Source of the DNA: Thermodesulfobacteriota bacterium
Lineage (GTDB): Bacteria > Desulfobacterota > Binatia > Bin18
Length of the DNA: 64,000 nucleotides
Assembly (NCBI GenBank): GCA_964291405.2
Contig: OZ219926.1
Coordinates: 2,432,001 to 2,496,000 of the forward strand
Direction of reading: 5' to 3'
Shown one piece after another: positions 1,134-61,785 of the stretch. Numbering within the stretch: the stretch's first letter is position 1; every line of letters starts with the position of its first letter. Under the pieces are notes generated by a model, which saw nothing but the letters and a program-made list of their open reading frames with translations, made no database searches and was not told the origin of the DNA. Both the position numbers and the translations under genes were made by a program.

Positions 1134-1184
1134 AAAGAGGGAACGTGTCTTTCAATAGACTAAAGATGGACACGTTTCCTCTTT
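1134..1184. repeat. Palindromic element copy 1 (ureA-ureC intergenic)
   Basis: AAAGAGGGAACGTGTC-TTTCAATAGACTAAAGATG-GACACGTTTCCTCTTT; abuts the ureA stop codon. Confidence 0.95.
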
Positions 1185-1487
1185 CTAGCGAATCGGCTGG
1201 TGGACGCTGACCAGCTTGGTCCCGTCCGGAAAGGTGGCCTCGACCTGTACCAGATCAATCATCTCAGCTACTCCGTCCATCACATCGTCCCGACGGAGGA
1301 TGGTCGCGCCGTACGACATTAGTTCCGACACGGATTGACCGTCCCGAGCTCCTTCCAGCACCGCGCTGGTAATCAGGGCCATGGCTTCGGGATAGTTCAG
1401 CTTCAAGCCGCGCGCCTGCCGTTCCCGGGCCAGTTGGGCGGCAAGATAGATCATCAGCTTCTCTTGTTCGTGCGGAGTAAAATGCAT
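1185..1487 (-). CDS. ureA: Urease subunit gamma
   Basis: [11 protein letters not shown]...GLKLNYPEA...[21 protein letters not shown]. Start placed at 1487; the upstream ATG at 1520 lies inside repeat copy 2. Confidence 0.96.
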
Positions 1488-1498
1488 ACCCGTTCTCC

Positions 1499-1552
1499 GA
1501 AGAGGAAACGTGTCCAGCATCTACACGCTGTTGGAGGACCCGTTTCCTCTTT
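1499..1552. repeat. Palindromic element copy 2 (urtE-ureA intergenic)
   Basis: GAAGAGGAAACGTGTCC-AGCATCTACACGCTGTTGGA-GGACCCGTTTCCTCTTT. Confidence 0.95.
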
Positions 1553-1568
1553 GTCGTCTAGCGAGACC

Positions 1569-2264
1569 CTAAACCGATAAATGCCGTTGGACAATATCAT
1601 CCGTCAAGGCGGCGATAGGTCCGTCGGCCACCACACTACCCTTTTCCATCACGGCAAAGGCATCCGCCACCCGGCGGGCAAAGGGGAGTTTCTGCTCGAC
1701 TAACAGAATGGTCAGGTTTTCCTCTTGGTTAAGCCGCAGCAGGATATCGCCGATCTCCTGGACGATATTGGGCTGAATGCCCTCGGTGGGCTCATCCAGA
1801 ATCAGCAGCTTCGGGTTCAGAGCCAGGGCACGGCCTATGGCCAACTGCTGCTGCTGTCCGCCGGACAGATCCCCGCCCCGCCGTCCGAGCATTTGCTCGA
1901 GCACGGGAAAGTAGTGGAACACCGACTCGGGGATCGTCCCAACCGCATCACGCCGCGCCGGCAGACCGATGCGCAGGTTTTCCTCAACGGTCAGTTGAGG
2001 AAAGATCTCGCGGCCCTGGGGAACATAGCCGATGCCGAGGCGCGCCCGCAGCGCCGCCGGACGACGCACCAGCTCGGCGTTCTCAAATTGGAGACTGCCG
2101 GAGGCGATGGGCAAGATGCCCATGATGGTCTTGAGCAGGGTGGTCTTGCCGACCCCGTTCCGACCCATCAGGCAGGTGCAGGACCCGGCTGGGATGTGGA
2201 GGTCAACATCCCATAAAATATGACTCTCGCCATAATATTGATTCAGGTTCTGAATGCGGATCAT
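1569..2264 (-). CDS. urtE: Urea ABC transporter ATP-binding subunit
   Basis: Walker A GRNGVGKTT, LSGGQQQQLAIGRAL, DEPTEGIQPNIV; urt context. Confidence 0.93.
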   Translation of the reverse strand: MIRIQNLNQYYGESHILWDVDLHIPAGSCTCLMGRNGVGKTTLLKTIMGILPIASGSLQFENAELVRRPAALRARLGIGYVPQGREIFPQLTVEENLRIGLPARRDAVGTIPESVFHYFPVLEQMLGRRGGDLSGGQQQQLAIGRALALNPKLLILDEPTEGIQPNIVQEIGDILLRLNQEENLTILLVEQKLPFARRVADAFAVMEKGSVVADGPIAALTDDIVQRHLSV

Positions 2265-2280
2265 CGTCGTCCTCGGCCCG

Positions 2281-3105
2281 CTAGGCTCCCAAATAGACCT
2301 CGACCACACGAGGGTCGCTCTGCACCTCTTCCATACTGCCTTCGGCCAGGACGCTCCCCTCGTGCAAGACCGTCACCGTCCGGGCCAGACTGCGGACAAA
2401 CTCCATGTCGTGTTCGACAACCACGACGGTATGTTTGCCGGCCAGCGACACCAGCAATTCGGCCGTTCGTTCCGTCTCCTGGTGGGTCATGCCGGCCACG
2501 GGCTCGTCCACCAACAATAACTGCGGATCTTGCATCAGCAGCATGCCGAGTTCCAACCACTGCTTTTGTCCGTGTGAGAGCAGCCCGGCGCGGGTGTAGA
2601 GCTGATCGAGGAGTCCGACCGTGTCAGCGGTCGAGGCAATGCGCTCGTGTTGCGTACGGCTCAGCCGGGCGAGCAGGCTATGCCACACCTTTTTATTCGC
2701 CTGCATGGCCAACTCCAGGTTTTCGAAGACGGTATGACCGTGGAAGACGGTCGGGCGCTGAAACTTCCGGCCGATTCCGGCCAGGGCGATGTCGTATTCC
2801 GAGAGTAGCGTCAGGTCCAGGTTGTTGCCAAAAAACACCGTCCCGGTATCCGGCCGGGTCTTGCCGGTGATGACATCCAGCAGAGTTGTTTTGCCGGCCC
2901 CGTTGGGGCCAATCAGACAGCGGAGCTCACCGGCGTTGAGATATAGCGTCAGCGCATTCAGGGCTTTCAGGCCATCGAAGCTCACCGTCACATCTTCAAC
3001 ATAGAGAATGACGCCGTGGCTGGTATCCAGTCCGGGCTGGGCCACATGGGCCATCGCCGGGCTGCCGCCCTGATCGATTGTTTCCTCCGGCATATCCCGA
3101 TTCAT
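2281..3105 (-). CDS. urtD: Urea ABC transporter ATP-binding subunit
   Basis: GPNGAGKTT, GIGRKFQRPTVF, LSHGQKQWLELGML; start estimated. Confidence 0.92.
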   Translation of the reverse strand: MNRDMPEETIDQGGSPAMAHVAQPGLDTSHGVILYVEDVTVSFDGLKALNALTLYLNAGELRCLIGPNGAGKTTLLDVITGKTRPDTGTVFFGNNLDLTLLSEYDIALAGIGRKFQRPTVFHGHTVFENLELAMQANKKVWHSLLARLSRTQHERIASTADTVGLLDQLYTRAGLLSHGQKQWLELGMLLMQDPQLLLVDEPVAGMTHQETERTAELLVSLAGKHTVVVVEHDMEFVRSLARTVTVLHEGSVLAEGSMEEVQSDPRVVEVYLGA

Positions 3106-3127
3106 GTTCTCGTCCCCGGTCCGGCAC

Positions 3128-4324
3128 CTATCCCGTCGTCTCACCAGTCTGCGGCTCAGCCTGCCGGCGCAATAAACCGGCCACACCACGAGGGAGAAAA
3201 AGAGTGACGACAATAAACATCCCTCCGAGAATATACAGCCACAGATAGGGAAACGCAGCAGTACACCAGCTTTTGATGCCATTGACCAAAAAAGCGCCAA
3301 GCAGGGCACCGGACAGGGTGCCACGTCCACCGACCGCGACCCAGATAGCCATCTCAATGGAATTGGCGGGCTGCATCTCGCTGGGGTTAATAATACCCAC
3401 CTGGGGGACGTACAGCGCGCCCGCCAAACCGCACAGCATCGCGGACAGGGTCCACAGGAAGAGTTTATAACCATGCGGGTTATAGCCGCAGAACATCAAA
3501 CGGCTCTCCGCATCGCGAACGGCCATGAGTACCCGTCCCAGCTTCGACATGACCAGATAGCGGCAGGCCAGATAGGCGAGTACGAGGACCACCACAGAGG
3601 TCACGTAGAGCCCCAGCTTGGTCGTCGGCTCTTGCAGCGAAAACCCGAGCAGGCGCTTAAAATCGGTCAGGCCGTTATTCCCGCCGAATCCCGTGTCGTT
3701 GCGGAAGAACAGCAGCATCAGCGCGTAGGTCATGGCCTGCGTAATGATAGAGAAGTAGACCCCACGAATCCGCGAGCGAAAGGCAAAAAAACCGAAGATA
3801 TAGGCCAGTATTCCAGGGACGATGAGGGCCATCCCCAGGGCAAAGCCAAAGTTGCTGAACCCATACCAGTACCACGGCAGTTCTTTCCAATCGAGAAAGA
3901 CCATGAAGTCGGGCAGTTCGCTCCGATAGACCCCCTCCGTCCCGATGGCCCGCATCAGGTGCATCCCCATGGCATAGCCGCCCAGCGCAAAGAACACGCC
4001 GTGCCCCAGGCTGAGAATGCCGGCATATCCCCAGATCAGATCCACGGCCAGGGCAACCAGGGCATAGCACATGAACTTGCCGAGCAGCGGGATGAGATAG
4101 TCCGGAAAGTGGAACGCCGAGTCGGCGGGCAGCAGATTCAGGCTGGGAATGACAATCACCCCAAGGAAGAAGAGCAGCCCGATCAGGCTCCACCCGCCTC
4201 GGGTATGAAGCCGCAGAATGGCCGTCAGCACGGAGTCAGACTGCTCAGGATGCTCCGCTAGCCGCGCCGGCTGGTCGGCGACCAGCGGCTCTGGAGAAGT
4301 CTCAGACAATGAGGAACTCACCAC
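3128..4324 (-). CDS. urtC: Urea ABC transporter permease
   Basis: DLIWGYAGILSLGHGVFFALGGYAMGM, LPDFMVFLDWKELPW, GFGGNNGLTDF; start estimated at GTG just after the urtB stop. Confidence 0.92.
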   Translation of the reverse strand: MVSSSLSETSPEPLVADQPARLAEHPEQSDSVLTAILRLHTRGGWSLIGLLFFLGVIVIPSLNLLPADSAFHFPDYLIPLLGKFMCYALVALAVDLIWGYAGILSLGHGVFFALGGYAMGMHLMRAIGTEGVYRSELPDFMVFLDWKELPWYWYGFSNFGFALGMALIVPGILAYIFGFFAFRSRIRGVYFSIITQAMTYALMLLFFRNDTGFGGNNGLTDFKRLLGFSLQEPTTKLGLYVTSVVVLVLAYLACRYLVMSKLGRVLMAVRDAESRLMFCGYNPHGYKLFLWTLSAMLCGLAGALYVPQVGIINPSEMQPANSIEMAIWVAVGGRGTLSGALLGAFLVNGIKSWCTAAFPYLWLYILGGMFIVVTLFLPRGVAGLLRRQAEPQTGETTG

Positions 4325-4328
4325 CGAC

Positions 4329-6008
4329 TTAGCTTTCCGCCAAGCGTCCCTTGAGCGCAAATAAGCCTTGGGGCCGCTGCTGGATGAATAAGACAATAAA
4401 AATGAGCACGCCAATTTTTCCCAATACCGCGCCGGCGACCGGTTCGAGCAGCTTATTGACCAAGCCCAGACTCAGCGCGCCTACCACTGTGCCAGCGATA
4501 TTCCCGACCCCGCCCAGCACCACGACCATAAACGAATCCACAATATACAGGCGGCCGAGTTCCGGCCCGACATTGCCAATCTGGGACAGCGCGACCCCAC
4601 CCAGGCCGGCAATGCCCGAACCCAAGCCAAAGGTCCACATATCAACCCGGCCCGCCGATATGCCCATGCAGGACGCCATGGGTCTGTTCTGGGTGACGGC
4701 TCGGACCTGTAAACCGAGGCGGGTCCGCTGGAGAATGAGCCAGACCAGGCCGACCACCAGCGCGACAAACAGAATAATGGCCAGCCGACTATACGGCAAA
4801 ACAACACCGTACAGGACTTCGGTGCCGCCCGACAGCCAGGACGGATTCGCTACCTGTACATTTTGGGCCCCGAAGATGAGACGCACACTCTGAATCAGAA
4901 CGAGGCTGATACCCCAGGTTGCGAGCAGAGTTTCCAAGGGGCGACCGTATAGAAAGCGGATCACCCCGCGCTCCAAGATCATCCCTGTCAGCAGACACAC
5001 CCCAAAAGCGGCCGGGATCGCGACCGCCAGATACCAGTCAAACCACGCCGGGAAACTCTCTTGAAAGATCCCCTGGACCACATAGCTGGCGTACGCGCCG
5101 AGCATTAACATCTCGCCGTGAGCCATGTTAATGACGCCCATTAGGCCAAACGTGATACCCAGGCCAAGGGCAGCCAGGAGCAATACACTGCCCAGACTCG
5201 TCCCATAGAAGAGATTCCCCAGGCTGTTGATCAGAAACTGAGTGCGTTCAAAGCTCGCTAGAGCGGCCGCGGCAGCTTCGCGTACCTCCGGGTCGGCCTC
5301 AACAAAAGAGCCATCTTCTTGGGTTGCGACCAGGGCTTCCAGTTGGGGTCGTAGCCCAAGGTTGCCCGACTCACCAATCATCCGAATAGCGGCGAGTCGC
5401 ACAGTTTGGTCTTCGCTCTGAAGCTGCATTTGCGCCACAGCGACGGCCAGGACATCCCGCACCGCAGCCTCGGTCTCGCGCTCCAGGACAGCTTGCAGAG
5501 GGCCCATCATCTCGGGCCGCGGACGCTTGGTCAGCTCTTCCGCCGCGGCCAGGCGTACGGCAGCGTCGGGAGCGTGTAACTCAAGTTGAGCAATAACCGG
5601 CCGTAACGCTCGCCGAATGGCATTGTTGATCCGAGGCGTCCGCAGCGCGGCCTCATCCAACTCCACGGTCTCCCCACTGAGCGCATCGCGCAGGCTGCCG
5701 TCTTCGGCTTTGATGTAGATGAGTCCGGCCTCATCGACCCGCAAACGCCGGTCGCCTAAAGCTTCAAGAGCGGGCAACGCGGCCGGGTCGTTCAGCGTGC
5801 CGAGCGCTGTTATTGCCTGCCGGACATCCCGACGACTCTTGGCTCCCAATCCCTGCAGGAGAGAGGTAAGGTCTCCCCCCGCAGCGGAGGCACCGGGGGG
5901 AGACGGGAGGCCGAGCAGCAGAATGAGAGACAGAAAGAGAAGGGAGATAGAGAGAAGGGGGTTCCTCTCTGTCTCAGTTCTCTGTCTCAATTCTCTGTCG
6001 CTCTTCAT
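4329..6008 (-). CDS. urtB: Urea ABC transporter permease with N-terminal periplasmic HEAT-like domain
   Basis: GLGITFGLMGVINMAHGE, YGRPLETLLATWG, RPQGLF motifs. Confidence 0.92.
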   Translation of the reverse strand: MKSDRELRQRTETERNPLLSISLLFLSLILLLGLPSPPGASAAGGDLTSLLQGLGAKSRRDVRQAITALGTLNDPAALPALEALGDRRLRVDEAGLIYIKAEDGSLRDALSGETVELDEAALRTPRINNAIRRALRPVIAQLELHAPDAAVRLAAAEELTKRPRPEMMGPLQAVLERETEAAVRDVLAVAVAQMQLQSEDQTVRLAAIRMIGESGNLGLRPQLEALVATQEDGSFVEADPEVREAAAAALASFERTQFLINSLGNLFYGTSLGSVLLLAALGLGITFGLMGVINMAHGEMLMLGAYASYVVQGIFQESFPAWFDWYLAVAIPAAFGVCLLTGMILERGVIRFLYGRPLETLLATWGISLVLIQSVRLIFGAQNVQVANPSWLSGGTEVLYGVVLPYSRLAIILFVALVVGLVWLILQRTRLGLQVRAVTQNRPMASCMGISAGRVDMWTFGLGSGIAGLGGVALSQIGNVGPELGRLYIVDSFMVVVLGGVGNIAGTVVGALSLGLVNKLLEPVAGAVLGKIGVLIFIVLFIQQRPQGLFALKGRLAES

Positions 6009-6119
6009 GCTGTTTCAGCCAGAAAATGCTTTACCGGGGAACGAATTCCCCGGCTATATGACGACACAAGGGGACTGGTGCCGACTCGCGCCAACACCAG
6101 TCCGTCACGGGCAGAGCCC

Positions 6120-7454: not shown

Positions 7455-7490
7455 TCGACTTCTCCTTTTCGTTATGCGGTTACTACATCC

Positions 7491-9135: not shown

Positions 9136-9531
9136 ATGCCGACCGAAAAAACGGCTTCCACGCTGATTCCTGGGGAAATCCTTCCAGCTGAAGGTTCAAT
9201 CGTCTTGAATGCCGGGCGACCCGTGCAGTCCGTCACCGTTCTCAATACCGGAGACCGACCGATTCAGGTAGGTTCGCATTATCACTTCTTCGAAGCCAAT
9301 CGAGCGTTGCGTTTTCCTCGGGCCACAGCCTTTGGTCTTCGGCTTGATATTCCAGCCGGTACGGCTGTTCGCTTTGAGCCTGGAGAAGAGAAAGTGATAC
9401 AACTGGTCCCGTTCGGCGGACAACGGACGGTCTTAGGCTTGAACGGTTTGACTGAGGGCAATACAGAGAATGCAACCGTTCGGCAACGGGCGCTCCAAAA
9501 GGCGTCAGAGCAGGGCTTCCTGAAAGAGTAA
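9136..9531 (+). CDS. ureB: Urease subunit beta
   Basis: [34 protein letters not shown]. Confidence 0.96.
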
Positions 9532-9577
9532 ACGTGTCCTCCGATAAACACGCAAATGCTGGACACGTTTCCTCTTT
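9523..9577. repeat. Palindromic element copy 3 (contains the ureB stop codon)
   Basis: AAAGAGTAAACGTGTCC-TCCGATAAACACGCAAATGCT-GGACACGTTTCCTCTTT. Confidence 0.95.
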
Positions 9578-10241: not shown

Positions 10242-10249
10242 TTCCCCCT

Positions 10250-12466: not shown

Positions 12467-12517
12467 AAAGAGGGAACGTGTCTTTCAATAGTCTGGAGTT
12501 GGACACGTTCCCTCTTT
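12467..12517. repeat. Palindromic element copy 4 (abuts tRNA 5' end)
   Basis: AAAGAGGGAACGTGTC-TTTCAATAGTCTGGAGTTG-GACACGTTCCCTCTTT. Confidence 0.95.
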
Positions 12518-17864: not shown

Positions 17865-19187
17865 CTATAGTCCACCAACAAAGCGACCGGGGTTCAAAAT
17901 ACCGTTGGGATCCAGGGTTTCTTTGAGTCGCTGCATAAGCGGAAACGCTTTGCCGACACTACCCCAGACATTCGCCCGTTCCTTGAGCGCCGCAGGGATC
18001 TCTTCCACAACGACAAATCCGTTGCTACCGGTTGCGTGGACACGTATCCAGTCAAAAAGGGACAAAATCTGGTCGTCGGGGACAGCCTCTCCTTCAAAAG
18101 CCGCGTACAGGATACCATTCCCGGCCCGGGCCAATAAACGGACTGGAGCATGGCGACGCTGGGATTCTGATTCCAGGTCGGCACAGAATGCCGCGAGCTG
18201 GGTTGGCTGAAGGCTGACTTTACACCGAAGCGTCGCCGGGCCGGACACAGGAAAATCCCGGAGGGCCTGAGAGAGCGTCTGCGCCTCGTCGACACTCAGC
18301 TCCTCAATATCACCTGCGTCATCCCCAAGAACATCACGCAGGTGATTCCGCTGGTCGTCGATTTCTTCCTGAATTCCAGCAAAGCCGACGAAAAGACGAT
18401 AGGCGTCTCCTCCTTGATCTCCGGAGGACGAAAGCGGAGAAAAATTGGCCAGTTCCAGGAAAAAGGGCTGCATGTCCGAGCCCGTCAATTTCAGCGCGGC
18501 TTCGCCAGCTTTTTCAGCCGAGGAGAATGTCAAGGCGAGCGTTGTTTGGGCTTCAGGTCGAGGACGGATCATAAAAGTCGCCTCGACGATAACGCCGAGC
18601 GTCCCAAACGACCCACAGTAGAGCTTTGGCAGGTCATAACCGGCCACGTTTTTCACGACTTGTCCACCACCCTTAATCAGCGTCCCATCCGCGCGCACGA
18701 CTTTTATGCCGATCAGAAAATCGCGGACCGTGCCTTGAGAGAAGCGGGCGGGACCGTTAAGATTGGCAGCAATGACTCCACCGACCGTGGCTCGCTCAGG
18801 ACACGGCGGGTCGAGCGGCAGCCATTGGCCATTTTCTCCAAGAATAGCCTGGAGTTGGGCCAGAGACATGCCGGCCCCAACGGTAATGGTCATATCGGTC
18901 GGCTGATAGTCGACAATCGCGCTCAGCCCTGTCGTACACAGCGCCTGCTCGTATCGTTTCGGTACGCCACCCAGGTGGAGAAACGCACCCTGTCCCACCG
19001 GGCTTATGGCGCAGCCGTTTTCATTTGCCTCTTTTAGCAGGCGAGAGACCTCTTCAATCGACGCGGGGTAGACTACCGTCTCGGGTGCTTGCCCGTCGAT
19101 GACGAACTGGGTGGACGGCGGATGACCTGCGGCCTGCGTCAAAGGAGTGAACGTGTCCTCCAGTGGTTTAGAAGAGATGCTGGACAC
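17865..19187 (-). CDS. glcE: Glycolate oxidase FAD-binding subunit GlcE-like
   Basis: GGQVVKNVAGYDLPKL, GSFGTLG, DPNGILNPGR; N-terminus derived from repeat copy 5. Confidence 0.85.
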   Translation of the reverse strand: MSSISSKPLEDTFTPLTQAAGHPPSTQFVIDGQAPETVVYPASIEEVSRLLKEANENGCAISPVGQGAFLHLGGVPKRYEQALCTTGLSAIVDYQPTDMTITVGAGMSLAQLQAILGENGQWLPLDPPCPERATVGGVIAANLNGPARFSQGTVRDFLIGIKVVRADGTLIKGGGQVVKNVAGYDLPKLYCGSFGTLGVIVEATFMIRPRPEAQTTLALTFSSAEKAGEAALKLTGSDMQPFFLELANFSPLSSSGDQGGDAYRLFVGFAGIQEEIDDQRNHLRDVLGDDAGDIEELSVDEAQTLSQALRDFPVSGPATLRCKVSLQPTQLAAFCADLESESQRRHAPVRLLARAGNGILYAAFEGEAVPDDQILSLFDWIRVHATGSNGFVVVEEIPAALKERANVWGSVGKAFPLMQRLKETLDPNGILNPGRFVGGL

Positions 19188-19199
19188 GTTTACTCCTTT
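19141..19199. repeat. Palindromic element copy 5 (overlaps glcE start)
   Basis: AAAGGAGTGAACGTGTCC-TCCAGTGGTTTAGAAGAGATGCT-GGACACGTTTACTCCTTT. Confidence 0.93.
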
Positions 19200-22308: not shown

Positions 22309-22344
22309 TTCCGTACGCTCGTCTTGATACAGTACACCGCAGAG

Positions 22345-22397
22345 AAGAGTAAACGTGTCCAGCATCTGCGTGTGTATTGGAGGACACGTTTACTCTT
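22345..22397. repeat. Palindromic element copy 6
   Basis: AAGAGTAAACGTGTCC-AGCATCTGCGTGTGTATTGGA-GGACACGTTTACTCTT, 1 nt before ATG 22399. Confidence 0.95.
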
Positions 22398-22398
22398 A

Positions 22399-27454: not shown

Positions 27455-27532
27455 TGTGGATAACTTCGTCATCTGACGAATATTTTCTCAGTCAAGAGGG
27501 GAAGTTATCGAGTTATCCACAGGTGTGGATAA
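27455..27532. promoter_or_regulatory. DnaA boxes upstream of dnaA
   Basis: TGTGGATAA 27455, TTATCCACA 27513, TGTGGATAA 27524. Confidence 0.85.
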
Positions 27533-27560
27533 CCTTTGTTGAGTGGGGGAAGGACGCGGC

Positions 27561-28886
27561 ATGTATCGGGTGTGGGAACAAGTGTTGGGGATTGTTGAGG
27601 GACAAGTAGGAAAGACGAATAGTGAAACCTGGCTGAAACCGATTCGGCCCCTTGGGCTCCAAGACGACACGTTTCATCTTGAGGTCCCAAGTGCGCTCTT
27701 TAAGGATTGGCTACTCAGTAATCTCGTCGGCCCCCTGGAAAACGCATTGACTGAGGTTCTTGGTCAGCCAACGCACCTCATCTTGCATGTACAGGAAAAA
27801 CCCCAAGGAGAACTCTTTCCAGAAGAAGAGAAGGAACAGCCCGCCCAGGGAAAAGGGAGGGGAAAGAAAGACGGGCTGATTCAGAATTACACCTTCTCCT
27901 CCTTTGTGGTCGGTGGTGGCAATCAGTTTGCTCATGCTGCGGCCAAGGCGGTCAGTAAGCACCCGGGGAAAAGCTATAATCCATTATTCATCTATGGGGG
28001 GGTTGGGTTAGGAAAGACGCATCTCATTAATGCCATTGGCCACGAGACATCGGCAAAACAGGAAAAGGACAATATTGTCTATCTGTCCTCAGAGTCTTTT
28101 ACCAATGAATTGATTGCTCATTTACGAAAGAATCGGATGACGGAATTTAAAAATAGATTTCGTCGTGCAGATGTTCTTATTCTTGATGATGTGCAGTTTC
28201 TGTCCGGTCGCGAACGAACACAAGAAGAATTTTTTCACACCTTTAATTCCCTCCATGAGTCAAACAAGCAGATTATATTAACGTCCGATAAATTTCCTCA
28301 TGAGATCGGTGGACTCGAAGAGCGGTTACGAAACCGTTTCGAGTGGGGGTTGATCGCCGATATCCAGCCACCCGACCTCGAGACTCGGGTCGCAATTCTA
28401 CAAAAAAAATCACGTGCAAAACGTATCCCCCTCCCCGACGATGTTGCCCTTTTTATTGCCTCTCATGTAACGTCAAACGTCCGAGAGCTTGAGGGCGGTC
28501 TGACACGATTAGGAGCACTGGCCGCCTTGAATCAGGCTGATATCACTGTCAACTTTGCCCGACAGGTTCTCAAGAATTTGGTCACAGACCAGGAAAAGAA
28601 AGTCTCGATTGAGACTATACAGAGAACTGTGAGTAAGTATTTTGGTGTCAGCGTTGCCGATATAACTTCAAAGAAACGAACGAAGCTAGTTTCGTTTCCG
28701 AGGCAGATTGGCATGTTTCTCTGCCGTAAGCTTGCCGGCGCCTCCTACCCAATGATTGGAATGCGATTTGGAGGAAAAGATCACACGACGGTTCTGCATG
28801 CCTGTCACGCAATTGAAACTCGGTTCAAAAAAGACGAAGAGCTTCGCGATATTATCAATAGAATAGAGATCATGATTTATGAGTAG
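27561..28886 (+). CDS. dnaA: Chromosomal replication initiator DnaA
   Basis: YNPLFIYGGVGLGKTHL, DDVQF, QEEFFHTFN, FGGKDHTTVLHA. Confidence 0.98.
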   Translation: MYRVWEQVLGIVEGQVGKTNSETWLKPIRPLGLQDDTFHLEVPSALFKDWLLSNLVGPLENALTEVLGQPTHLILHVQEKPQGELFPEEEKEQPAQGKGRGKKDGLIQNYTFSSFVVGGGNQFAHAAAKAVSKHPGKSYNPLFIYGGVGLGKTHLINAIGHETSAKQEKDNIVYLSSESFTNELIAHLRKNRMTEFKNRFRRADVLILDDVQFLSGRERTQEEFFHTFNSLHESNKQIILTSDKFPHEIGGLEERLRNRFEWGLIADIQPPDLETRVAILQKKSRAKRIPLPDDVALFIASHVTSNVRELEGGLTRLGALAALNQADITVNFARQVLKNLVTDQEKKVSIETIQRTVSKYFGVSVADITSKKRTKLVSFPRQIGMFLCRKLAGASYPMIGMRFGGKDHTTVLHACHAIETRFKKDEELRDIINRIEIMIYE

Positions 28887-28889
28887 GCT

Positions 28890-29190
28890 CTTCTCCCTGT
28901 GGATAACCTGTGGATAACCTGTGGATAACCTGTGGATAACCTGTGGATAACCTGTGGATGGATAAGAACTCGGGATGATAAGAATTATGAGAGAGAGATG
29001 GAAAAAGTTATCCACAGTTATCCACACCCCCCCCGAAGTTATCCACACCCCCCTGTGGATAACTTTTGTACTATAAACAGATGCTTAACCCACTTATCCA
29101 CATATCCACAGGCCCTACTACTACTATTATTATCTATTTATATATAAATATAAAAAATAAGTAGTAGTAAGTAGAAGAAGAGAAGAAGGG
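28890..29190. other. Replication origin oriC (dnaA-dnaN intergenic)
   Basis: Ten perfect TTATCCACA boxes in either orientation, GGCCC plus TAC/TAT trios at 29111-29133, AT-rich DUE 29134-29160. Confidence 0.92.
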
Positions 29191-35900: not shown

Positions 35901-35951
35901 AAAGAGTAAACGTGCCTAGCTTCTTTGAATTGGAGGGCACGTTTACTCTTT
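35901..35951. repeat. Palindromic element copy 7 (contains stop of the 84-aa ORF)
   Basis: AAAGAGTAAACGTGCC-TAGCTTCTTTGAATTGGAG-GGCACGTTTACTCTTT. Confidence 0.95.
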
Positions 35952-36643: not shown

Positions 36644-37336
36644 ATGGCGTCGCCCATCCACACTTGGCCCGAATCTGACCGACCGCGTGAGAAACTGATC
36701 GAGCACGGGGCGGCAGCCCTCTCCAATGCAGAACTCCTTGCTATTATCCTCCGTACCGGCGATGCAAGTTCAGGACAGAGCGCGCTTGACCACGGTCGGG
36801 CGCTTGTCTCCCGTTTTGGGGACTCTTTCCGAAAACTGGAAGAGGCGAGCACGGCCGAACTGTGCGAGGTCAAAGGTATCGGGCCGGCAAAAGCCGCACA
36901 GATAAAAGCCTCATTGGAGATTGCGAAGCGCTTCTCACAAGAAGAAATTCGACGGGGCGATTCGTTTAGCTCAAGTGCTGATGTCTTCAATCACTACCGT
37001 GAACAACTCGGCAGTCTCAAAAAAGAAGAATTTCACGTGCTTCTCCTGGACGCCAAAAACCGAAAACTCAAAGACGTGCGTGTATCGGAGGGCTCTTTGA
37101 CCTCCTCCTTGGTCCACCCCCGTGAGGTTTTTCAGCCCATCATCCGCGAGTCGGCCGCGGCCGCGATCTTGGTGCATAACCACCCCAGTGGCGATCCGAT
37201 GCCGAGCCAGGAAGACCTCAAAATCACCCAGCGCCTCAGGGAGGTCGGAGAAGTGATGGGCATCCACATTCTGGACCACCTGATTATTGGCAAAGGCCGC
37301 TATATTAGTTTTGTCGATGATGGGTACTGGGATTAA
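36644..37336 (+). CDS. radC: RadC/JAB domain protein
   Basis: DRPREKL, VHPREVF, VHNHPSGDPMPS..D, LDHLIIG. Confidence 0.95.
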   Translation: MASPIHTWPESDRPREKLIEHGAAALSNAELLAIILRTGDASSGQSALDHGRALVSRFGDSFRKLEEASTAELCEVKGIGPAKAAQIKASLEIAKRFSQEEIRRGDSFSSSADVFNHYREQLGSLKKEEFHVLLLDAKNRKLKDVRVSEGSLTSSLVHPREVFQPIIRESAAAAILVHNHPSGDPMPSQEDLKITQRLREVGEVMGIHILDHLIIGKGRYISFVDDGYWD

Positions 37337-37386
37337 AGAGTAAATGTGTCCTCCAATAAACATGATGCTGGACACGTTTACTCTTT
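37335..37386. repeat. Palindromic element copy 8 (overlaps radC stop)
   Basis: AAAGAGTAAATGTGTCC-TCCAATAAACATGATGCT-GGACACGTTTACTCTTT. Confidence 0.95.
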
Positions 37387-56809: not shown

Positions 56810-57466
56810 TTTCTTTCTGAAAAAAAGAGCATATCTGTCTCCTTCACCAAAGGGGAGTTGGTATTTATCTACGGTCTCCTGTACGAAGCCGTCATGAGGG
56901 GAGTGATCTTCTCCTGCGGTTCCGCCGCCTTTCTTGTGGGGACCTCGCATTGCTACCGCATAGCCCCCTTTTTTCACAATCGGAAGGCAGAGGGTCAGGA
57001 AGTGAGCCATATCCCAGGTCGCCCGTGTGACAACAGTATCGAACCAAGCGGGCCTCCTATCCTGTAGAGCGAACTCTTCGGCTCTCCCTTCAAACACGCG
57101 TATATTCTCTACGCCCGTCATTCTGACTACCTGTCTCAGAAAGTTTGCTCTTTTTCTTCGGGCCTCGATGAGAAAAATCTCTCTTTTCTGCCCGGCTACG
57201 CCAAGTACCAATCCTGGAAACCCGGCTCCACTCCCAAGGTCGGCAAAAACACCCTGCCCCGGAAGAATGTACGAAAAGGCAAGAGAGTCAAGAATATGCT
57301 TTCGAATAATTGTTTTTACATCAGGCTGGCCGACGAGATTGAAGACCTGAGCCCAGCGCTGAAGTTCATCTATGTACAGGGATAGAGTGTGGAACGACTG
57401 TGGAGCAAGCGATATTCGTAACGCCCTCGTGCCCTGCTCTAAGAGAGAAAGGCTCTCTTTATCCAT
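56798..57466 (-). CDS. rsmG: 16S rRNA m7G527 methyltransferase
   Basis: KHILDSL, DLGSGAGFPGL, VTRA; follows mnmG. Confidence 0.92.
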   Translation of the reverse strand: MDKESLSLLEQGTRALRISLAPQSFHTLSLYIDELQRWAQVFNLVGQPDVKTIIRKHILDSLAFSYILPGQGVFADLGSGAGFPGLVLGVAGQKREIFLIEARRKRANFLRQVVRMTGVENIRVFEGRAEEFALQDRRPAWFDTVVTRATWDMAHFLTLCLPIVKKGGYAVAMRGPHKKGGGTAGEDHSPHDGFVQETVDKYQLPFGEGDRYALFFRKKCFT

Positions 57467-59385
57467 TACACGGCGGCTCCCGTGCGTTTCAGGTGAATGG
57501 CCAGTAACGATACGGCTGCGGGCGTTACCCCGGGGATACGCGACGCTTGACCCAGCGAGCGGGGGCGCAAGGTCAGGAGTTTTTCTTTGACTTCGTTTGA
57601 GAGACCTTGGACATCCGTGTAATCAATCTCATTCGGAATAAGGGCCTCTTCCATATGCCGGACCCTGTTTACTCCCTCTTCCTGACGGCGTATGTAGCCA
57701 GAATACTTTACTTCTATCTCCACCTCGGCCCCAACTCCTGTGGAGAGGGGAGTGGGTGACAGGCTGATGGACTGGACATCTCCGAAGGACAGTTCAGGGC
57801 GGCGAAGCAATTTTGCAAGCGATGTCGGCGTTTTAATCTCTGCCGTACCTAAAGCCGATAATTGGGTATTCACTGTGTCGTTTGGGGTTAGTATAGTGTC
57901 CTCTAGACGTTGAACCTCCTGTGCAATTTCTTCTTTTTTCCTCAGCGTCCGCTCGGCCAATCTTCCATCTATGAGTCCGATTCTCCGTCCGAATTCGCTC
58001 AGCCTCACATCTGCATTGTCTTCCCTGAGTAACAGCCGATGCTCAGCACGAGAAGTAAACATCCGGTAGGGCTCTCCTCCTACTCCTTTCGTGACCAAAT
58101 CGTCTATAAGAACGCCAATATAGGCTTGATCTCGGGAAAAAATGAGGGGGTTATCACCTTGAACCTTCATTGTGGCGTTAATTCCGGCCATTATTCCTTG
58201 TGCCGCAGCCTCCTCATAGCCCGTTGTCCCGTTAATCTGACCGGCGAAGTAGAGGCCCGATACCAGCTTGGTTTCCAAAGTCTGCGTGAGTTGGGTCGGG
58301 TCGGCATAGTCATATTCAATGGCATAGCCGGGGCGCATGATCTCTGCATCCTCTAACCCTTGTATTGAACGGACCACGGCGAGCTGCACATCCAGTGGCA
58401 GACTTGTCGAAAGGCCATTTGGATAGACTTCGACTGTATCTCGCCCTTCTGGTTCGAGAAAAATCTGGTGACGAGGTTTCTCCTTAAAACGAATGACTTT
58501 ATCCTCAATCGATGGACAATAACGCGGCCCTCTGCCTTCAATCACACCGGAATACAGGGGTGAGCGGTCAAGTCCTGCGGCAATGGTCTGGTGCGTTTTC
58601 TCATTCGTATACGTCATATGACACGGCAATTGTTCCTGGGTGATTGCCTCCGTTGAAAAGGATAAGGCCGGTGGAGGGGTATCCCCGTACTGTGGCTCCA
58701 AAATGTCATAATTGATCGTTCGATTGTCCAAGCGCGGACAGGTGCCGGTTTTGAGCCGACCAATATGAAAACCAAGTTCGCTCAGATGGCTGCTTAATCC
58801 TTCAACGGCAAAGTCCCCCGCTCGTCCTGCTGCGTAATTTTTAAGGCCAACGTGTATGAGACCCTTGAGAAAGGTTCCGGTCGTCAGAATAACGGTCTGT
58901 GCTGAGAAGGACTCACCTATCTGAGTGATCACTCCTCTGACTCTGCTGTTCTGAAGAGGAAACGTGTCCAGCATATCATGTCTATTGGAGGAAACGTTTC
59001 CTCTTTCAACCCTGAGGCGTTCCACACTGCCCTGGCGCAGGGTGAGATTGGGCGTGGTTTCAACCACTCTCTTCATACGCTGCCGATAGAGGGCCTTGTC
59101 CGCTTGCGCACGCGTCGCGCGAACGGCCGGCCCTTTGCGTGTGTTCAAGACACGGAACTGAATGCCTGTCTCATCAATGGCGCGGGCCATTTCCCCACCA
59201 AGCGCATCAATCTCCCGCACCAAATGGCTTTTGCCCATCCCTCCAATAGCCGGATTGCATGACATCTGACCGATGTGATCAAGGTTCAGCGTCAGCATCA
59301 GAGTCTTACTGCCAAGACGTGCCGCCGCCAGAGCCGCCTCGATCCCGGCATGGCCAGCGCCAACAACGATAACATCATAGTCCAT
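57466..59385 (-). CDS. mnmG: tRNA modification enzyme MnmG/GidA with 18-aa repeat-derived insertion
   Basis: [41 protein letters not shown]. Confidence 0.97.
58953..59006. repeat. Palindromic element copy 9, in frame within mnmG
   Basis: GAAGAGGAAACGTGTCC-AGCATATCATGTCTATTGGA-GGAAACGTTTCCTCTTT (54 nt). Confidence 0.95.
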
Positions 59386-59395
59386 GGGTCTTCAC

Positions 59396-60847
59396 CTATT
59401 TCCCGATACAGAAATCTTGAAACACGCGGTCGAGTATCTCCTCGCTGCTGACCTGGCCCGTTATTGCGCCAATATGGTCAAGGCTTGCGCGAAGATCAAC
59501 AGCGATCAGGTCAAGGGGGAGGCCTGCCGCCAACCCCTGCTCTGCACCCTTTAGGCTTTCCACAGCTTTTTCAAGGGCAACTTTATGCCGTATTTTCGTA
59601 ATCATAACACCCCTATACGGACCTTCGCCTTCCCCTCCAGGTTGCTGCTTCCCCAGAGCGACCTCTTGTATTCTGTCTCCCAAGTCGTCAACCCCAGTCC
59701 CGTACAGCGCAGCCATGTGAAGAAGAGGAAACGTGTCAATAGCCTTGTATGATTTGGAGGGCACGCTTCCTCTTTGAGGCGCTTCAGTATCCAGACGGTC
59801 TAACAGATCGGTCACATCAAATTTCTGAGGGAGATCACTCTTATTCCCCACCAGGACAAACTTCTTTCCTTGAATCTTTTCACAGATGAGAGCGTCATCC
59901 GCATCGAACGGTCGGGAGAGGTCGAAAAGTGCTAAAATAATCTCTGCTTGTTCAATGCTGGACAGGCTGCGCTCAATGCCGATCTTCTCAATCTCATCCG
60001 TTGTCCGACGAATCCCAGCGGTGTCCCGCACGACGAGGGGAATCTCGTTCACGAGCACGGATTCCTCGAGCACATCTCGTGTCGTCCCAGGGACCTGGGT
60101 GACAATGGCTCGCTCTGTGTCTGCCAGCAGGTTGAGCAGGCTCGACTTACCGACATTCGGCTTCCCAATAATAGCGGTCACGATCCCGTCGCGATAGACT
60201 TTTCCTTGGGAGAAGGTCGCTGCGAGGGCCTCTATATCGATCCGAATTGAAGAGAAAGCTGAGCTGAGCTCCTTTTGGTTGTGTTCAGGGATATCGTCTT
60301 CAGGGAAATCGATAAACGCTTCCAGGTAGGCCGTCTGGGTAATGAGGCGGTCCCGAATGGCCGAGCACGCCTGGGAGAGTCGGCCTGATAAATCCCTCCA
60401 GGCAAGATGTAAGCCCGTCTCATTATTCGCGTGAATGAGGTCGAGTACAGCCTCAGCCTGTATGAGATCGAGGCGACCGTTGAGAAATGCACGTTTTGTA
60501 AACTCACCTGGCTGGGCGGGACGAGCCCCCTGATTGAGGATCGCTTCCAATATCCGACGAGTCAGGAAACTGCCGCCATGGAGATGTAGCTCAGCGATGT
60601 GTTCCCCAGTATAGCTGTGAGGGGAGCGCATCAGGATCAGGCCGGCGTGGTCAATTGGCTGGCCGTTCGGCTGATCCAGAATCTTGCCAAGATAGAAATG
60701 GTGGGAATGGAGTTTTTCCCAAGACGGCCGGGGGAGAAAAAGCTGTCTAACTATTCTTTCTGCGTCCGCGCCACTGACTCGGATAACGGCGATCCCGCCC
60801 TGGCCTGAGGGAGTCGCAATAGCAGCAATCGTATCATGCTCGTACAC
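59396..60847 (-). CDS. mnmE: tRNA modification GTPase MnmE with 18-aa repeat-derived insertion
   Basis: DTIAAIATP, GKPNVGKSS, GTTRD, DTAG, NKSD, FCIGK. Confidence 0.97.
   Translation of the reverse strand: MYEHDTIAAIATPSGQGGIAVIRVSGADAERIVRQLFLPRPSWEKLHSHHFYLGKILDQPNGQPIDHAGLILMRSPHSYTGEHIAELHLHGGSFLTRRILEAILNQGARPAQPGEFTKRAFLNGRLDLIQAEAVLDLIHANNETGLHLAWRDLSGRLSQACSAIRDRLITQTAYLEAFIDFPEDDIPEHNQKELSSAFSSIRIDIEALAATFSQGKVYRDGIVTAIIGKPNVGKSSLLNLLADTERAIVTQVPGTTRDVLEESVLVNEIPLVVRDTAGIRRTTDEIEKIGIERSLSSIEQAEIILALFDLSRPFDADDALICEKIQGKKFVLVGNKSDLPQKFDVTDLLDRLDTEAPQRGSVPSKSYKAIDTFPLLHMAALYGTGVDDLGDRIQEVALGKQQPGGEGEGPYRGVMITKIRHKVALEKAVESLKGAEQGLAAGLPLDLIAVDLRASLDHIGAITGQVSSEEILDRVFQDFCIGK
59722..59775. 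repeat. Palindromic element copy 10, in frame within mnmE
   Basis: GAAGAGGAAACGTGTC-AATAGCCTTGTATGATTTGGAG-GGCACGCTTCCTCTTT (54 nt). Confidence 0.93.
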
Positions 60848-60855
60848 AACTCTTC

Positions 60856-60908
60856 AAAGAGTAAACATGTCCTCCAATAGATACAAGTTGTTGACACGTT
60901 TACTCTTT
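60856..60908. repeat. Palindromic element copy 11 (jag-mnmE intergenic)
   Basis: AAAGAGTAAACATGTC-CTCCAATAGATACAAGTTGTT-GACACGTTTACTCTTT. Confidence 0.95.
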
Positions 60909-60918
60909 ATGCCACGGG

Positions 60919-61713
60919 TCACGAGCGAGCCGCCCGCCGGTCTCGATCCCGACGAGGACTGCCGGTTTCCTCAGGAACAATAGAGAGACGACGGAAATAC
61001 CCACGCCCCATGCTTTTTGTCACAACAAGCGGGTCGTCTTCGAGCACCAAATGGACGACACGACGGTCTCGAGGACTCAGCGGATTCAGGGTAACCGTTT
61101 TTCGTCGCCGCTTCGCCCGCTCGCTCAAACGAAGGGCCAAGCTTTCAAGACTCTGGCGGCGACGTTCACGATAGCCCTCGGCGTCCAAGATGATATGCGC
61201 CTCTTCCTCTTCTCCACGGGCGACCATGCGGTTGAGAAGATATTCGAGGGCATCAAGCGTTTGCCCCTTCCGTCCAATGAGTAAGCCATCGACGGTATCT
61301 TCAAGATTAATAACGGCTTCTGTCCCTTGGACGTCGAGTGAGACGGGGGCCTCTACACCCATAAGACGTAGGGTTTCTGAGAGTATCTGACGGGCATTTT
61401 CTCTTGTCTCCTTGGAAACGGGAACGGGCTGGACGACTGATTCTCCAGAAGGAGCACGACGTCGCGCTGTTCTCCCTCTCTCCTGAGGAGATTCATCAAT
61501 ACTGGCCGGAGCCGCAGATGCAGGCTCCTGAACCGAAACAGGATTTCTCAACGTCGCTCGGACGCGCGCCTTCCTCCCGCCAATACCGAGGAAACCCTTT
61601 GTAGCCTGAGCGAGGACTTCTATTTCCACCTGCTCTCTGTCTGCTTGGAGTTGGGTTAGGGCTGCTGCAACCGCCGCTTCTATAGTCGATCCTTCCGCTT
61701 CAATTGCACTCAT
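60919..61713 (-). CDS. jag: Jag/EloR (KhpB) RNA-binding protein
   Basis: Jag_N GFLGIG, KH LIGRKGQTLDALEYL, R3H RRVVH. Confidence 0.92.
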   Translation of the reverse strand: MSAIEAEGSTIEAAVAAALTQLQADREQVEIEVLAQATKGFLGIGGRKARVRATLRNPVSVQEPASAAPASIDESPQERGRTARRRAPSGESVVQPVPVSKETRENARQILSETLRLMGVEAPVSLDVQGTEAVINLEDTVDGLLIGRKGQTLDALEYLLNRMVARGEEEEAHIILDAEGYRERRRQSLESLALRLSERAKRRRKTVTLNPLSPRDRRVVHLVLEDDPLVVTKSMGRGYFRRLSIVPEETGSPRRDRDRRAARS

Positions 61714-61731
61714 TGTGTCTTTCCTCTTTGA

Positions 61732-61785
61732 AAAGAGTAAACGCGTCCTCCAATAACATGCAGATGCTGGACACGTTTACTCTTT
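61732..61785. repeat. Palindromic element copy 12 (yidC-jag intergenic, abuts yidC stop)
   Basis: AAAGAGTAAACGCGTCC-TCCAATAACATGCAGATGCT-GGACACGTTTACTCTTT. Confidence 0.95.

Follow-up and report, generated by a model that had tools for sequence, protein, structure and literature searches.

How small palindromic repeats such as the CGTC REPs and the RPEs move without a linked transposase has been an open question since these elements were first described. According to the account of Di Nocera et al. 2013 (PMC3733652), GTAG REPs have a stem of 5-13 bp and a loop of 2-20 nt, and CGTC REPs have a stem of 8-9 bp, a loop of 4-5 nt, a terminal CGTC tag and a 3-nt CCA tail. The CGTC super-family of intragenic REPs, as delimited there, includes RPE-4 and RPE-6 of Rickettsia. 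RPE-1 (Ogata et al. 2000), as summarized in a review of MITEs (PMC10969869), is about 150 bp long and adds about 45-50 residues to the proteins concerned. The same review gives bacterial MITEs such as Correia, ERIC and Chunjie as usually 100-400 bp long, with target-site duplications and a parent IS.

The twelve palindromes described here are very probably copies of a real, mobile, non-autonomous and selfish palindromic element of about 54 bp. New are the copies lying in frame at ten sites in conserved genes, a loop that flips in place and an approximately ten-fold density peak at oriC. The family fits no named REP, REPIN, MITE or RPE family, although it is set apart from the RPEs by description, not by sequence. 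Rfam gave no match over the window at gathering score, nor over positions 58800-62000 at E≤1, searches of plasmids and phages gave no match to the element, and a literature search found no named family, in line with the initial annotation, which had recognised none. With many closed genomes of related species and scar-free filled and empty sites, the family is unusually clean material for the question of movement.

The palindromes of the window and their family

The window is the whole stretch of DNA analyzed (64,000 nt), which belongs to a 4.95-Mb Binatia genome. A paired-arm search of the window located all 12 of the copies listed by the initial annotation (12/12). They are given below together with the oriC region.

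1134..1184, + strand, copy 1 (51 nt): urease operon, in the spacer from the ureA stop codon to the ureC ribosome-binding site; carried by G004 and G001, orthologous site empty in G011, G006 and G014
1499..1552, - strand, copy 2: in the gap separating an ABC-transporter ATPase gene from ureA; empty site in G006 exactly 54 nt shorter, absent also from G001, G011 and G014
9523..9577, + strand, copy 3: between ureB and ureG; occupied in G004, G005 and G017, other genomes with a remnant or an empty site
12467..12517, + strand, copy 4 (51 nt): last base is the first base of tRNA-Arg(CCT) (12517-12592); empty in G011, G006, G005 and G017
19142..19198, + strand, copy 5 (57 nt; arm variant AAGGAG/CTCCTT): flanked by a pair of FAD-linked oxidase genes; occupied in G000 and G002 alone, clean 57-nt difference to G004
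22344..22398, - strand, copy 6: lies downstream of the gene for aspartate-semialdehyde dehydrogenase; occupied in G000 and G004 alone
27455..29110, no strand, oriC region: 13 perfect DnaA boxes flanking dnaA (27543-28886) on both sides
35901..35951, - strand, copy 7 (arms with the compensated variant GTGCC/GGCAC): lies downstream of an AhpC/TSA ORF that is truncated; filled in 5/8 genomes of the syntenic block described below
37335..37386, + strand, copy 8: between radC and a MaoC-dehydratase gene; loop inverted in place in G001/G005, as the exact reverse complement of the G004/G011 loop variant
58953..59006, - strand, copy 9: in frame within mnmG/gidA (57466-59385, - strand), predicted product with 18 extra residues (aa 127-144); the 54 nt are absent in G001
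59722..59775, - strand, copy 10: in frame within mnmE (59396-60847, - strand), aa 358-375; net 48 nt absent in G001
60856..60908, + strand, copy 11: between mnmE and jag; present in G000 only, of three genomes covering the site
61732..61785, + strand, copy 12: between jag and yidC; of all 12 the one most like the family consensus, occupied in G004 and G001

In the whole genome the family comprises 157 loci by nhmmer, every one on contig C3, and model R1 gives at least 149 matches. The unit is non-coding and has a modal length of 54 nt (range 51-57 nt). It consists of two complementary arms with the consensus AAAGAG[T/G]AAACGTGTCC / GGACACGTTT[A/C]CTCTTT, separated by an asymmetric loop of about 20 nt. 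Each arm has 17 bp, within the 16-18 bp assigned beforehand, and the spacer polarity and the two orientations noted at the same time are genuine (7 '+' and 5 '-' in the window). The copies are single, without head-to-head dimers. The 10-mer arm core, with up to one mismatch, occurs 25 times in the window compared to 3.63 expected and a maximum of 10 in 100 shuffles. As 156/157 copies are distinct in sequence, the family does not stem from a recent burst. About 139/157 loci are located outside coding sequence and about 10/157 are internal to genes; the initial annotation had missed that the coding sequences of mnmG and mnmE contain copies 9 and 10, respectively, and that copy 4 abuts tRNA-Arg(CCT).

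The arms of each copy stay complementary. In the 12 window copies 93.6% of the stem cells pair, compared to 35-61% with the partner arm slid, and 4/17 stem pairs show changes on both sides, which bears out the arm covariation claimed earlier. Over all 157 copies 88.6% of the stem cells are Watson-Crick pairs versus 82.9 +/- 0.35% with partner arms shuffled between copies; stem position 7, for instance, is T-A in 97 copies and G-C in 41. Folds predicted for five copies as single-stranded DNA have energies of -12.8 to -15.3 kcal/mol (z -5.5 to -7.6) and form one continuous 17-bp stem, in which the ends of the element pair to the last base. A single arm has no self-complementarity beyond ACGT. 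In orthologous copies the arms are kept somewhat better than loops and flanks (93% and 90.5% conservation in the arms versus 88.5% in the flanks). Since the arms exceed the flanks in conservation by so little, selection on the hairpin is modest.

The loop can invert in place. It is flipped, as an exact reverse complement, in 14/59 orthologous pairs, which fall at 2/16 shared sites, and the length of the loop A-run of copy 11 varies between strains. Small loop inversions, in which the segment separating two short inverted repeats turns round in place, are familiar from chloroplast hairpins, and in quasi-palindromes template switching makes arms complementary without need of a transposase. These processes fit both the flips at 2/16 shared sites and the arm covariation observed here. 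However, they are a property of any hairpin-forming DNA and not of a mobile family, and account for the upkeep of copies but not for their insertion. Arm correction and loop flipping may proceed via template switching or via recombination between the arms.

Occupancy and mode of insertion

The repeat is restricted to two genera within a single family of uncultured Binatia, as expected for the lineage-specific element proposed initially. With model R1 at E≤1e-6 it was detected in 20/27 genomes of genus g1 and in 7/8 genomes of genus g16, but in 0/20 genomes from the nine other genera searched, and is therefore present in 2/11 genera of this Binatia family. In the same survey R1 counts per genome range from 0 to at least 103. 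Genomes of one genus harbor 0, 2, 28 and more than 100 copies, so that phylogenetic profiling could lead to the mobiliser.

Occupancy turns over between species and is stable within the species sampled. A syntenic block of 64-71 kb in eight same-genus genomes contains 23 insertion sites, of which 16 are common to at least two genomes, seven occur in one genome only and none (0/23) is filled in all eight. Relatives also carry insertions where the window has none between 40000 and 44000. Among 27 genomes with a match to alaS, six carry the copy in this gene, 15 have a gene shorter by exactly 54 nt, and six give alignments split around the site. Within the same species, contigs from three other runs bridge copies 9-11, and none among the joints listed skips the element alone. 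Identical occupancy, named beforehand as an argument against mobility if it held in distant relatives, was not encountered among the relatives compared; occupancy differs widely, and orthologous loci with and without a copy are set apart by a clean step of about 54 nt. This shows that the family is mobile on a between-species time scale.

Insertion is seamless and concerns a unit of about 54 nt, without target duplication and without a clear target consensus. In 19 clean filled/empty pairs the insert measures 54 nt in 10 (range 48-58), and none has a target-site duplication. The ends are not always exact, as copies 1, 10 and 11 have a few extra or replaced bases with respect to the empty site. 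Direct repeats of 4 nt flank 1/137 full copies compared to 0.5 expected, in agreement with the earlier statement that no clear duplication is visible, and repeats of 2 to 9 nt occur at chance level. No conserved base was found beside the element ends, either in 137 copies or in the 19 empty sites.

These data bear on a derivation from a DDE-type IS by deletion, in which a very short MITE would be moved by the transposase of that IS via its terminal inverted repeats. The 17-bp arms could act as such repeats, copy number varies between genomes as in MITEs, and the element shares with them, as reviewed in PMC10969869, that it is non-autonomous and sometimes located in operons or in frame in genes. 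However, neither the 2- to 9-nt repeats nor the 19 filled/empty pairs reveal a duplication, and the 11 weak matches to solo arms in the genome (10 places) frame no IS. The window's genome has one DDE_Tnp_1 match and one rve match, neither of which adjoins an arm, and no IS110 or TnpB. This origin is highly improbable. Membership in the MITEs was rejected on the absence of a target-site duplication, on the absence of a parent IS with the same arms in the window's genome and on the shortness of the unit.

Relation to REP systems and the search for a mobiliser

Like the GTAG and CGTC REPs described in PMC3733652, the element is a short palindrome that is mostly extragenic and varies widely in copy number between relatives. 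That account places REP units in uvrA, tRNA synthetases and tRNA-modifying enzymes; here uvrA-like, mfd, alaS, mnmE, mnmG and miaB-like genes are affected. The lack of a dedicated transposase and the intragenic position of some units, both given there for CGTC REPs, recur as well. However, the family has neither the tags nor the CCA tail: its ends AAAGAG/CTCTTT pair, the stem has 17 bp and the loop about 20 nt. Head-to-head dimers occur among those REPs, whereas the copies here are single, and REPs are reported in PMC3733652 to favor convergent-gene sites, in which this element is depleted. With the REP/REPIN-RAYT systems of Pseudomonas and enterobacteria it shares hairpin repeats, high copy number, the absence of target duplication and lineage-specific families, and its 157 loci agree with the general description of a REP or REPIN as a short imperfect palindrome of high copy number and mostly extragenic position. 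Assignment to the GTAG REPs or REPINs was nevertheless rejected, as there is no GTAG/GTRG tag at the ends and no GTAG in the flank profile, no REPtron, no RAYT tracking and no doublet architecture. Palindrome-associated elements derived from IS200/IS605 were likewise dismissed: no fixed tetra- or pentanucleotide stands beside the ends, and the unit is a single symmetric hairpin instead of having different end hairpins.

A REP or REPIN mobilised by a RAYT, an HUH Y1 transposase acting on single-stranded hairpins, would explain seamless insertion without duplication in a short, abundant and mostly extragenic palindrome, provided that the RAYT has been lost or goes undetected in most genomes. A RAYT-like gene is present in the window's genome, and G.T mismatches exceed A.C mismatches on the '+' loop strand (about 127 versus 90, with the six commonest pairs per position tallied). 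Orientation is weakly biased on the right replichore (48 '+' versus 21 '-', p=0.0016), but the left replichore shows no mirrored bias (46 versus 40). The Y1 domain PF01797, moreover, occurs in 13/28 genomes of the genus, with no relation to the presence of the element: G002, G004, G006, G010, G011 and G015 have at least 129 R1 matches and no Y1, whereas Y1 matches are found despite few elements in G008 and G016 (0 R1 matches) and in G014 (2). The sole Y1 match of the window's genome appears to contain a frameshift, and the repeat flanking it is a different one. The unpaired GTAG tag is missing while the ends pair to the last base, and the arms are not palindromes themselves and thus do not constitute a REP doublet. 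None of 12 Y1 loci checked (0/12) holds an R1 match at E≤1 and no DDE gene of the window's genome lies beside the arms, so the check proposed earlier, for a RAYT/HUH or DDE transposase flanked by the same arms, revealed none. Mobilisation by a RAYT is unlikely.

The element is non-autonomous, as proposed initially, being a non-coding unit of 54 nt. The scan of 58 window ORFs detected no transposase or integrase domains, which confirms the earlier view of the window. No copy is linked to a transposase gene, and a cognate RAYT, DDE, TnpB or IS110 was not found. Movement might proceed via an extruded or single-stranded hairpin, with catalysis in trans by an enzyme without a linked gene or by a host replication or repair activity; this mechanism is possible but tentative. 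Rather doubtful is the more specific proposal of a hairpin transposon without a transposase of known family, inserted by a novel enzyme or by replication/repair machinery on extruded hairpins, with integration or retention coupled to origin proximity.

Density around oriC, gene context and in-frame copies

Element density peaks approximately ten-fold around oriC, which lies within the window, in three genomes. Per 100 kb from oriC outwards it declines from 13 to 1-2 in G000, from 11 to 1 in G006 and from 8.5 to 1 or less in G039. Such a peak is not predicted for a purely selfish, random inserter and might point to a host function. If the hairpin transposon without a transposase of known family were real, the gradient would be a signature of its mechanism or of a host use organising the origin region. 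The origin-centred density ties a mobile repeat to chromosome organisation in a way that can be tested.

A structural site used by the host, such as a site for gyrase or a nucleoid protein or a cruciform, could have been selected around the origin, its spread by insertion being secondary. The gradient recurs in three genomes though the sites of insertion vary from species to species, arm sequence is retained somewhat better than that of loops and flanks, and partner arms covary; E. coli REPs, as presented in PMC4820846, bind gyrase and are densest near the origin. However, 0/23 sites are filled in all eight genomes, seven same-genus genomes are without any match, copies inside coding sequences have no obvious role as a binding site and there is no known binding protein. 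The gradient could also result from local hopping out of origin-proximal founders or from accumulation in old core DNA, which is argued in PMC3390384 to gather more copies of Pseudomonas REPs. A host-used site is thus improbable as the primary explanation.

Insertions are located in intergenic DNA including intra-operon spacers and the 5' edge of a tRNA gene. One quarter of the copies abut the upstream stop codon (median distance 35 nt). This position within operons and near gene ends, together with a stem that tolerates G.T pairs, would suit an element acting at the RNA level, as a terminator, a stabiliser of mRNA or a processing hairpin under selection for what it does to neighboring genes. 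However, orientation is independent of transcription (48 copies in gene direction versus 38 opposite in tandem contexts), no T run follows the stem and Rfam has no match. Convergent-gene spacers are depleted (13/142 copies versus 26 expected) and divergent-gene spacers are common (43), the opposite of terminators and of REPs as characterized in PMC3733652. Contigs of one RNA run bridged no copy (0). An RNA-level element is very unlikely, and the selfish element remains the preferred reading.

Stop-free in-frame copies survive in conserved genes; their frame stays open and, judged from the translations, they would add 16-19 residues. Ten such copies were found, including those in mnmG, mnmE, alaS, mfd and a uvrA-like gene. 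The predicted 18-aa insert from copy 9 falls in a gap opposite E. coli MnmG 3CP2, AlaRS has an 18-aa insert with respect to 1RIQ, and MnmE has extra residues compared to 3GEH. Pfam domains flank the copies in the UvrA-like, Mfd, MiaB-like (two copies), FAD-monooxygenase and HEAT proteins; in an APH kinase the Pfam domain extends up to the copy. The copies account for odd 18-residue inserts and for ORF starts extended too far in the annotation of Binatia genomes.

The initial annotation had likened the family to REPINs, MITEs and RPEs. Membership in the first two does not hold, and of the three comparisons the one with RPEs fits best, since copies lie in frame within genes. As outlined for RPE-1 in PMC10969869, palindromic selfish DNA is found in frame in unrelated housekeeping genes, where it adds an extra peptide, and has no known transposase. 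Here, too, MnmG, AlaRS and MnmE have extra residues whose DNA is missing in orthologues. R. conorii has 44 RPE integrations in genes according to that review, compared to about 10/157 copies internal to genes in this genome. The comparison with RPE-1, drawn by description and not by sequence, differs in taxon, which is unrelated, and in size, with 54 bp and 16-19 residues here. RPE-1 itself was rejected on size, as the unit of 51-57 nt falls below about 100-150 bp. On the evidence of the gene sequences, essential enzymes outside Rickettsia (AlaRS, MnmE, MnmG and Mfd) would contain protein sequence derived from selfish DNA. The lineage is uncultured and occurs in sponge and coral metagenome runs. 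A near-identical strain is present in a run labelled sponge metagenome, and thus the bacterium may be host-associated, like Rickettsia.

The hairpin repeat family in the source genome and its relatives

All 12 copies described in the initial annotation, and no others, were recovered in the window by a paired search for arm cores lying 10-40 nt apart. The 10-mer arm core occurs 25 times with at most one mismatch, compared with 3.63 expected occurrences and a maximum of 10 in 100 shuffles. In the aligned window copies the arms, originally given as 16-18 bp around a spacer, have a length of 17 bp and enclose a loop of about 20 nt. The proposed polarity of this loop, with TCCAATA on one side and GATGCT on the other, is constant among the aligned window copies. 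Pairing is found in 93.6% of their stem cells, but only in 35-61% if the partner arm is slid, and 4 of the 17 stem pairs are altered on both sides, in agreement with the covariation reported for the arms. Five copies folded as single-stranded DNA reached -12.8 to -15.3 kcal/mol (z -5.5 to -7.6).

A profile derived from the genome's own copies identified 157 loci in the source genome (G000; 4.95 Mb, 57.8% G+C, three contigs), all of them on the large contig C3, whose positions 2432001-2496000 form the window. Most of these copies measure 54 nt (88) or 55 nt (37), with a range of 51-57 nt, and both orientations occur as initially described, 96 copies showing one loop orientation and 61 the other. 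Watson-Crick pairs occupy 88.6% of the stem cells in the 157 copies versus 82.9 +/- 0.35% when partner arms are dealt among copies, and at stem position 7 the pair is mostly T-A (97 copies) or G-C (41), with few mixed pairs. Thus, both arms of one copy stay matched. The copies appear to be old, because 156 of the 157 are distinct, as are 153 of the loops, and the 54-mers are on average only 72% identical.

Several minor features were observed among the genome copies. The only two identical copies (G000:C3:2091886-2092040) share one orientation and have start points separated by 101 nt, which speaks for tandem duplication of one copy together with its flank at this place rather than for two insertions. 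At G000:C3:2812972-2812991 the outer halves of the arms meet at ACGT in a perfect palindrome of 20 nt, which looks like a copy with the inner stem and loop deleted. On the '+' loop strand G.T stem mismatches number about 127 versus about 90 A.C mismatches (tally of per-position counts, 157 copies), and an excess of '+' polarity is confined to the right replichore (48 to 21 in G000, 46 to 30 in the related genome G006); both asymmetries between the strands are weak.

The covariance model built on the 12 window copies (R1) matched 20 of 27 genomes of the Binatia genus g1 and 7 of 8 genomes of the genus g16, but none of the 20 genomes from nine other genera of the order, as expected for the lineage-specific element that had been postulated. 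The number of matches per genome varies widely (0, 2, 28, up to at least 150). In a search of contig collections, 71 of the 80 loci listed belong to records of 'Candidatus Binatia bacterium'. The nine non-Binatia loci among those listed scored 18-29 bits with R1 versus 69-82 bits for two Binatia control loci, and were taken as chance palindromes. No match to the element was obtained in plasmid and phage collections.

Occupancy of orthologous sites

The window was compared with the syntenic 69-71 kb of eight genomes of the same genus, seven of which are 84-93% and one 72% identical to it. The block contains 23 insertion sites, 16 of which are common to at least two genomes while seven are filled in a single genome. 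None is filled in all genomes compared, so that occupancy is not identical among relatives and the mobility assumed in the initial annotation is upheld. Comparison of empty with filled sites in 19 pairs revealed a difference of one clean unit, with an inserted length of 54 nt in 10 pairs and a range of 48-58 nt; no target bases were duplicated or deleted at these pairs. Likewise, a 4-nt direct repeat was located at only 1 of 137 full copies genome-wide versus 0.5 expected, which matches the lack of a target-site duplication noted before. At copies 1, 10 and 11 some bases are extra or replaced relative to the empty site. The empty sites share a C at +6 (13 of 19) and no other target consensus, and in the genome copies the only preference is a weak one for G near -5/-6 and C near +5/+6. 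In the region 40000-44000 of the window, which is free of copies in G000, extra bases occur at a single point in the related genomes G006 (56) and G005 (about 54).

These alignments show a mobile element whose insertion leaves no scar. Copies 9-11 are bridged by contigs from three DNA sequencing runs (X2, X3 and X4), whose long pieces differ from the window by <1%, and no element-only skip was found among the joints listed, which places the observed mobility between, and not within, the species sampled. The contigs of an RNA run (X17) bridged none of the copies. The differences seen within the species are a changed length of the loop A-run at 60884 and, in copy 10, two substitutions whose positions carry the consensus arm in all three DNA runs. 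Run X4 is labelled as a sponge metagenome and contributed a contig piece of 3583 nt with 21 differences from the window, and thus contains a near-identical strain.

Relatedness to G000 depends on the locus: G004 is 95% identical in the urease region (window 300-2400) and 88% in the alaS region (locus L187), and the corresponding values for G013 are 64% and 88%. Species of the genus have therefore probably recombined with one another, which complicates the dating of insertions.

Two of the 16 shared sites, and 14 of 59 orthologous pairs, have loops of opposite polarity in different species. At the site of copy 8, between radC and a gene for a MaoC-type dehydratase, the loop in G001 and G005 is the exact reverse complement of the variant in G004 and G011, and the inversion therefore took place in situ. 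At block coordinate 43385 of G004 the position is the same and the loop sub-types differ by species, which suggests repeated insertion or conversion between copies.

Candidate mobilisers and known repeat families

A Pfam search of every called ORF in the window (58 in total) revealed no integrase domain and, in agreement with the initial annotation, no transposase domain. The transposase flanked by the same arms that was envisaged there was not found elsewhere in G000 either. A Y1 transposase domain (PF01797) matches once in this genome, in an apparently frameshifted gene amid a different, G+C-rich hairpin repeat, and this gene was rejected as the mobiliser on both grounds. In the genus, PF01797 is present in 13 of 28 genomes and its presence does not track the element; none of 12 Y1 loci carries element copies. 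TnpB (PF07282), IS110 (PF01548) and DUF559 (PF04480) gave no match in G000, and Y2_Tnp (PF04986) matched neither G000 nor the control genomes. DDE_Tnp_1 and rve match once each, neither adjoining an arm. The single full-length RVT_1 match (G000:C3:3702979-3703632, 164 bits, in an open frame of 578 aa), possibly a group II intron protein, has no copy nearby.

Genes framed by two copies were also considered, based on 38 pairs of adjacent copies less than 3 kb apart. The seven ORFs scanned encode a PHP-associated protein, two enoyl-CoA hydratases, RecR, a SLOG-family protein, ThiS and one protein without a match. No nuclease or recombinase was found among them; those with a match are housekeeping genes.

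The RAYT-like Y1 gene (locus L001, G000:C3:980603-983833) is apparently split by the frameshift into ORFs at 1016-1423 and 1468-1800 and is flanked on both sides by the G+C-rich hairpin repeat with the core GCGGGCTKCCAGCCCGC. Of the 48 genomic matches to this core, 16 fall at 0.5-1.0 Mb, the same interval as the gene. Gene and repeat together resemble a REPtron and would form a second system that has no relation to the 54-nt element.

Rfam yielded no match for the copies, either in the whole window at the gathering score or in 58800-62000 at E<=1, and no description of the element was found in the open-access literature searched. The defining features of four known families are likewise missing. 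The element lacks the tag, the RAYT and the doublet of GTAG REPs and REPINs; it differs from CGTC REPs, as described in PMC3733652, in the sizes of stem and loop and has neither tag nor tail; unlike MITEs, it has no duplication and no parent IS in G000; and it reaches only about one third of the size of RPE-1. Of the comparisons with REPINs, MITEs and RPEs made in the initial annotation, those with REP-like and RPE-like elements hold for behaviour, but the defining features of REPIN, MITE and RPE-1 are missing. The annotation's view of an unrecognised family stands: the repeat is a real, undescribed family of small mobile repeat that behaves as a REP-like or RPE-like selfish palindrome. Di Nocera et al. 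(2013, PMC3733652) described REP families without a transposase as well as REPs that lie inside uvrA and the genes for tRNA synthetases and tRNA-modifying enzymes, and PMC10969869 summarises RPEs inserted in frame.

Copies inside genes and around the origin

In-frame copies within genes had escaped the first inspection. Among the 157 copies of G000, 10 well-supported internal copies are spread over nine genes.

Internal copies in G000, by gene
mnmG: copy 9; end-to-end alignment with E. coli MnmG (3CP2) is interrupted only by an insert of exactly 18 residues (aa 127-144), and the G001 orthologue lacks the 54 nt
mnmE: copy 10, aa 358-375; extra residues relative to Nostoc MnmE, net 48 nt absent in G001
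alaS: one copy; insert of exactly 18 residues compared with Aquifex AlaRS (1RIQ)
mfd: one copy; solved Mfd structures align only flanking a variable linker, so that the alignment does not show the insert
UvrA-like gene (1931 aa): one copy
MiaB-like gene: two copies
FAD monooxygenase gene: one copy
APH-family kinase gene: one copy
HEAT-repeat gene: one copy

The internal status of a further copy, close to the N-terminal end of a histidine kinase, is uncertain. An OEP gene and an FtsQ-like gene contain two copies and one copy, respectively, in their C-terminal tails, and four copies provide the final codons and the stop codon of genes. As about 86% of the genome is coding, random insertion would place about 135 of the 157 copies in genes, and the small number of internal copies therefore indicates that disruptive insertions were removed. 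The alaS copy is polymorphic, being present in 6 of 27 matching genomes; in 15 others alaS lacks exactly 54 nt of this length, and in 6 the alignments are split around the site.

The copies show no link to the direction of transcription (48 tandem contexts with the gene direction, 38 against). They are scarce between convergent genes (13 of 142 versus 26 expected) and frequent between divergent genes (43). This pattern is opposite to the gene-context preference given for REPs in PMC3733652.

The density of copies is highest around dnaA in G000 and in the related genomes G006 and G039, and the coding fraction is alike in the regions compared.

Copies per 100 kb by distance from dnaA
G000: 13 within 100 kb; 1-2 beyond 1 Mb
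G006: 11 within 100 kb; about 1 far off
G039: 8.5 within 100 kb; at most 1 far off

In G039, 43 of 78 loci lie <400 kb from dnaA. E. coli REPs are likewise reported to be most dense near the origin (PMC4820846), and for Pseudomonas REPs it is stated that they stay away from the origin proper and are a sign of old core DNA (PMC3390384). The window spans oriC, because 13 perfect DnaA boxes (TTATCCACA) at 27455-27532 and 28898-29110 flank dnaA (27543-28886) in the part of the window with the lowest G+C content (47-52%). No hairpin copies occur between 22398 and 35901, across dnaA-dnaN-gyrB-gyrA. Besides these four genes, the Pfam matches in the window include urease genes, a urea-type ABC transporter and the ATP synthase operon; tRNA-Arg, parA, parB, mnmG, mnmE, jag and yidC are also present.

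An Rfam match to 5_ureB_sRNA (86 bits, window 667-965, plus strand) lies opposite to the gene for the urease alpha subunit; conservation of the urease coding sequence is the probable source of the match, which is therefore no proof of an sRNA. In window 1-12403 the urease genes form two groups: ureC and ureA are located on the minus strand beside genes for an ABC-transporter ATPase, permease and binding protein, and ureB, ureG, ureD and ureF on the plus strand about 8 kb from ureC/ureA. Hairpin copies flank ureA on both sides.
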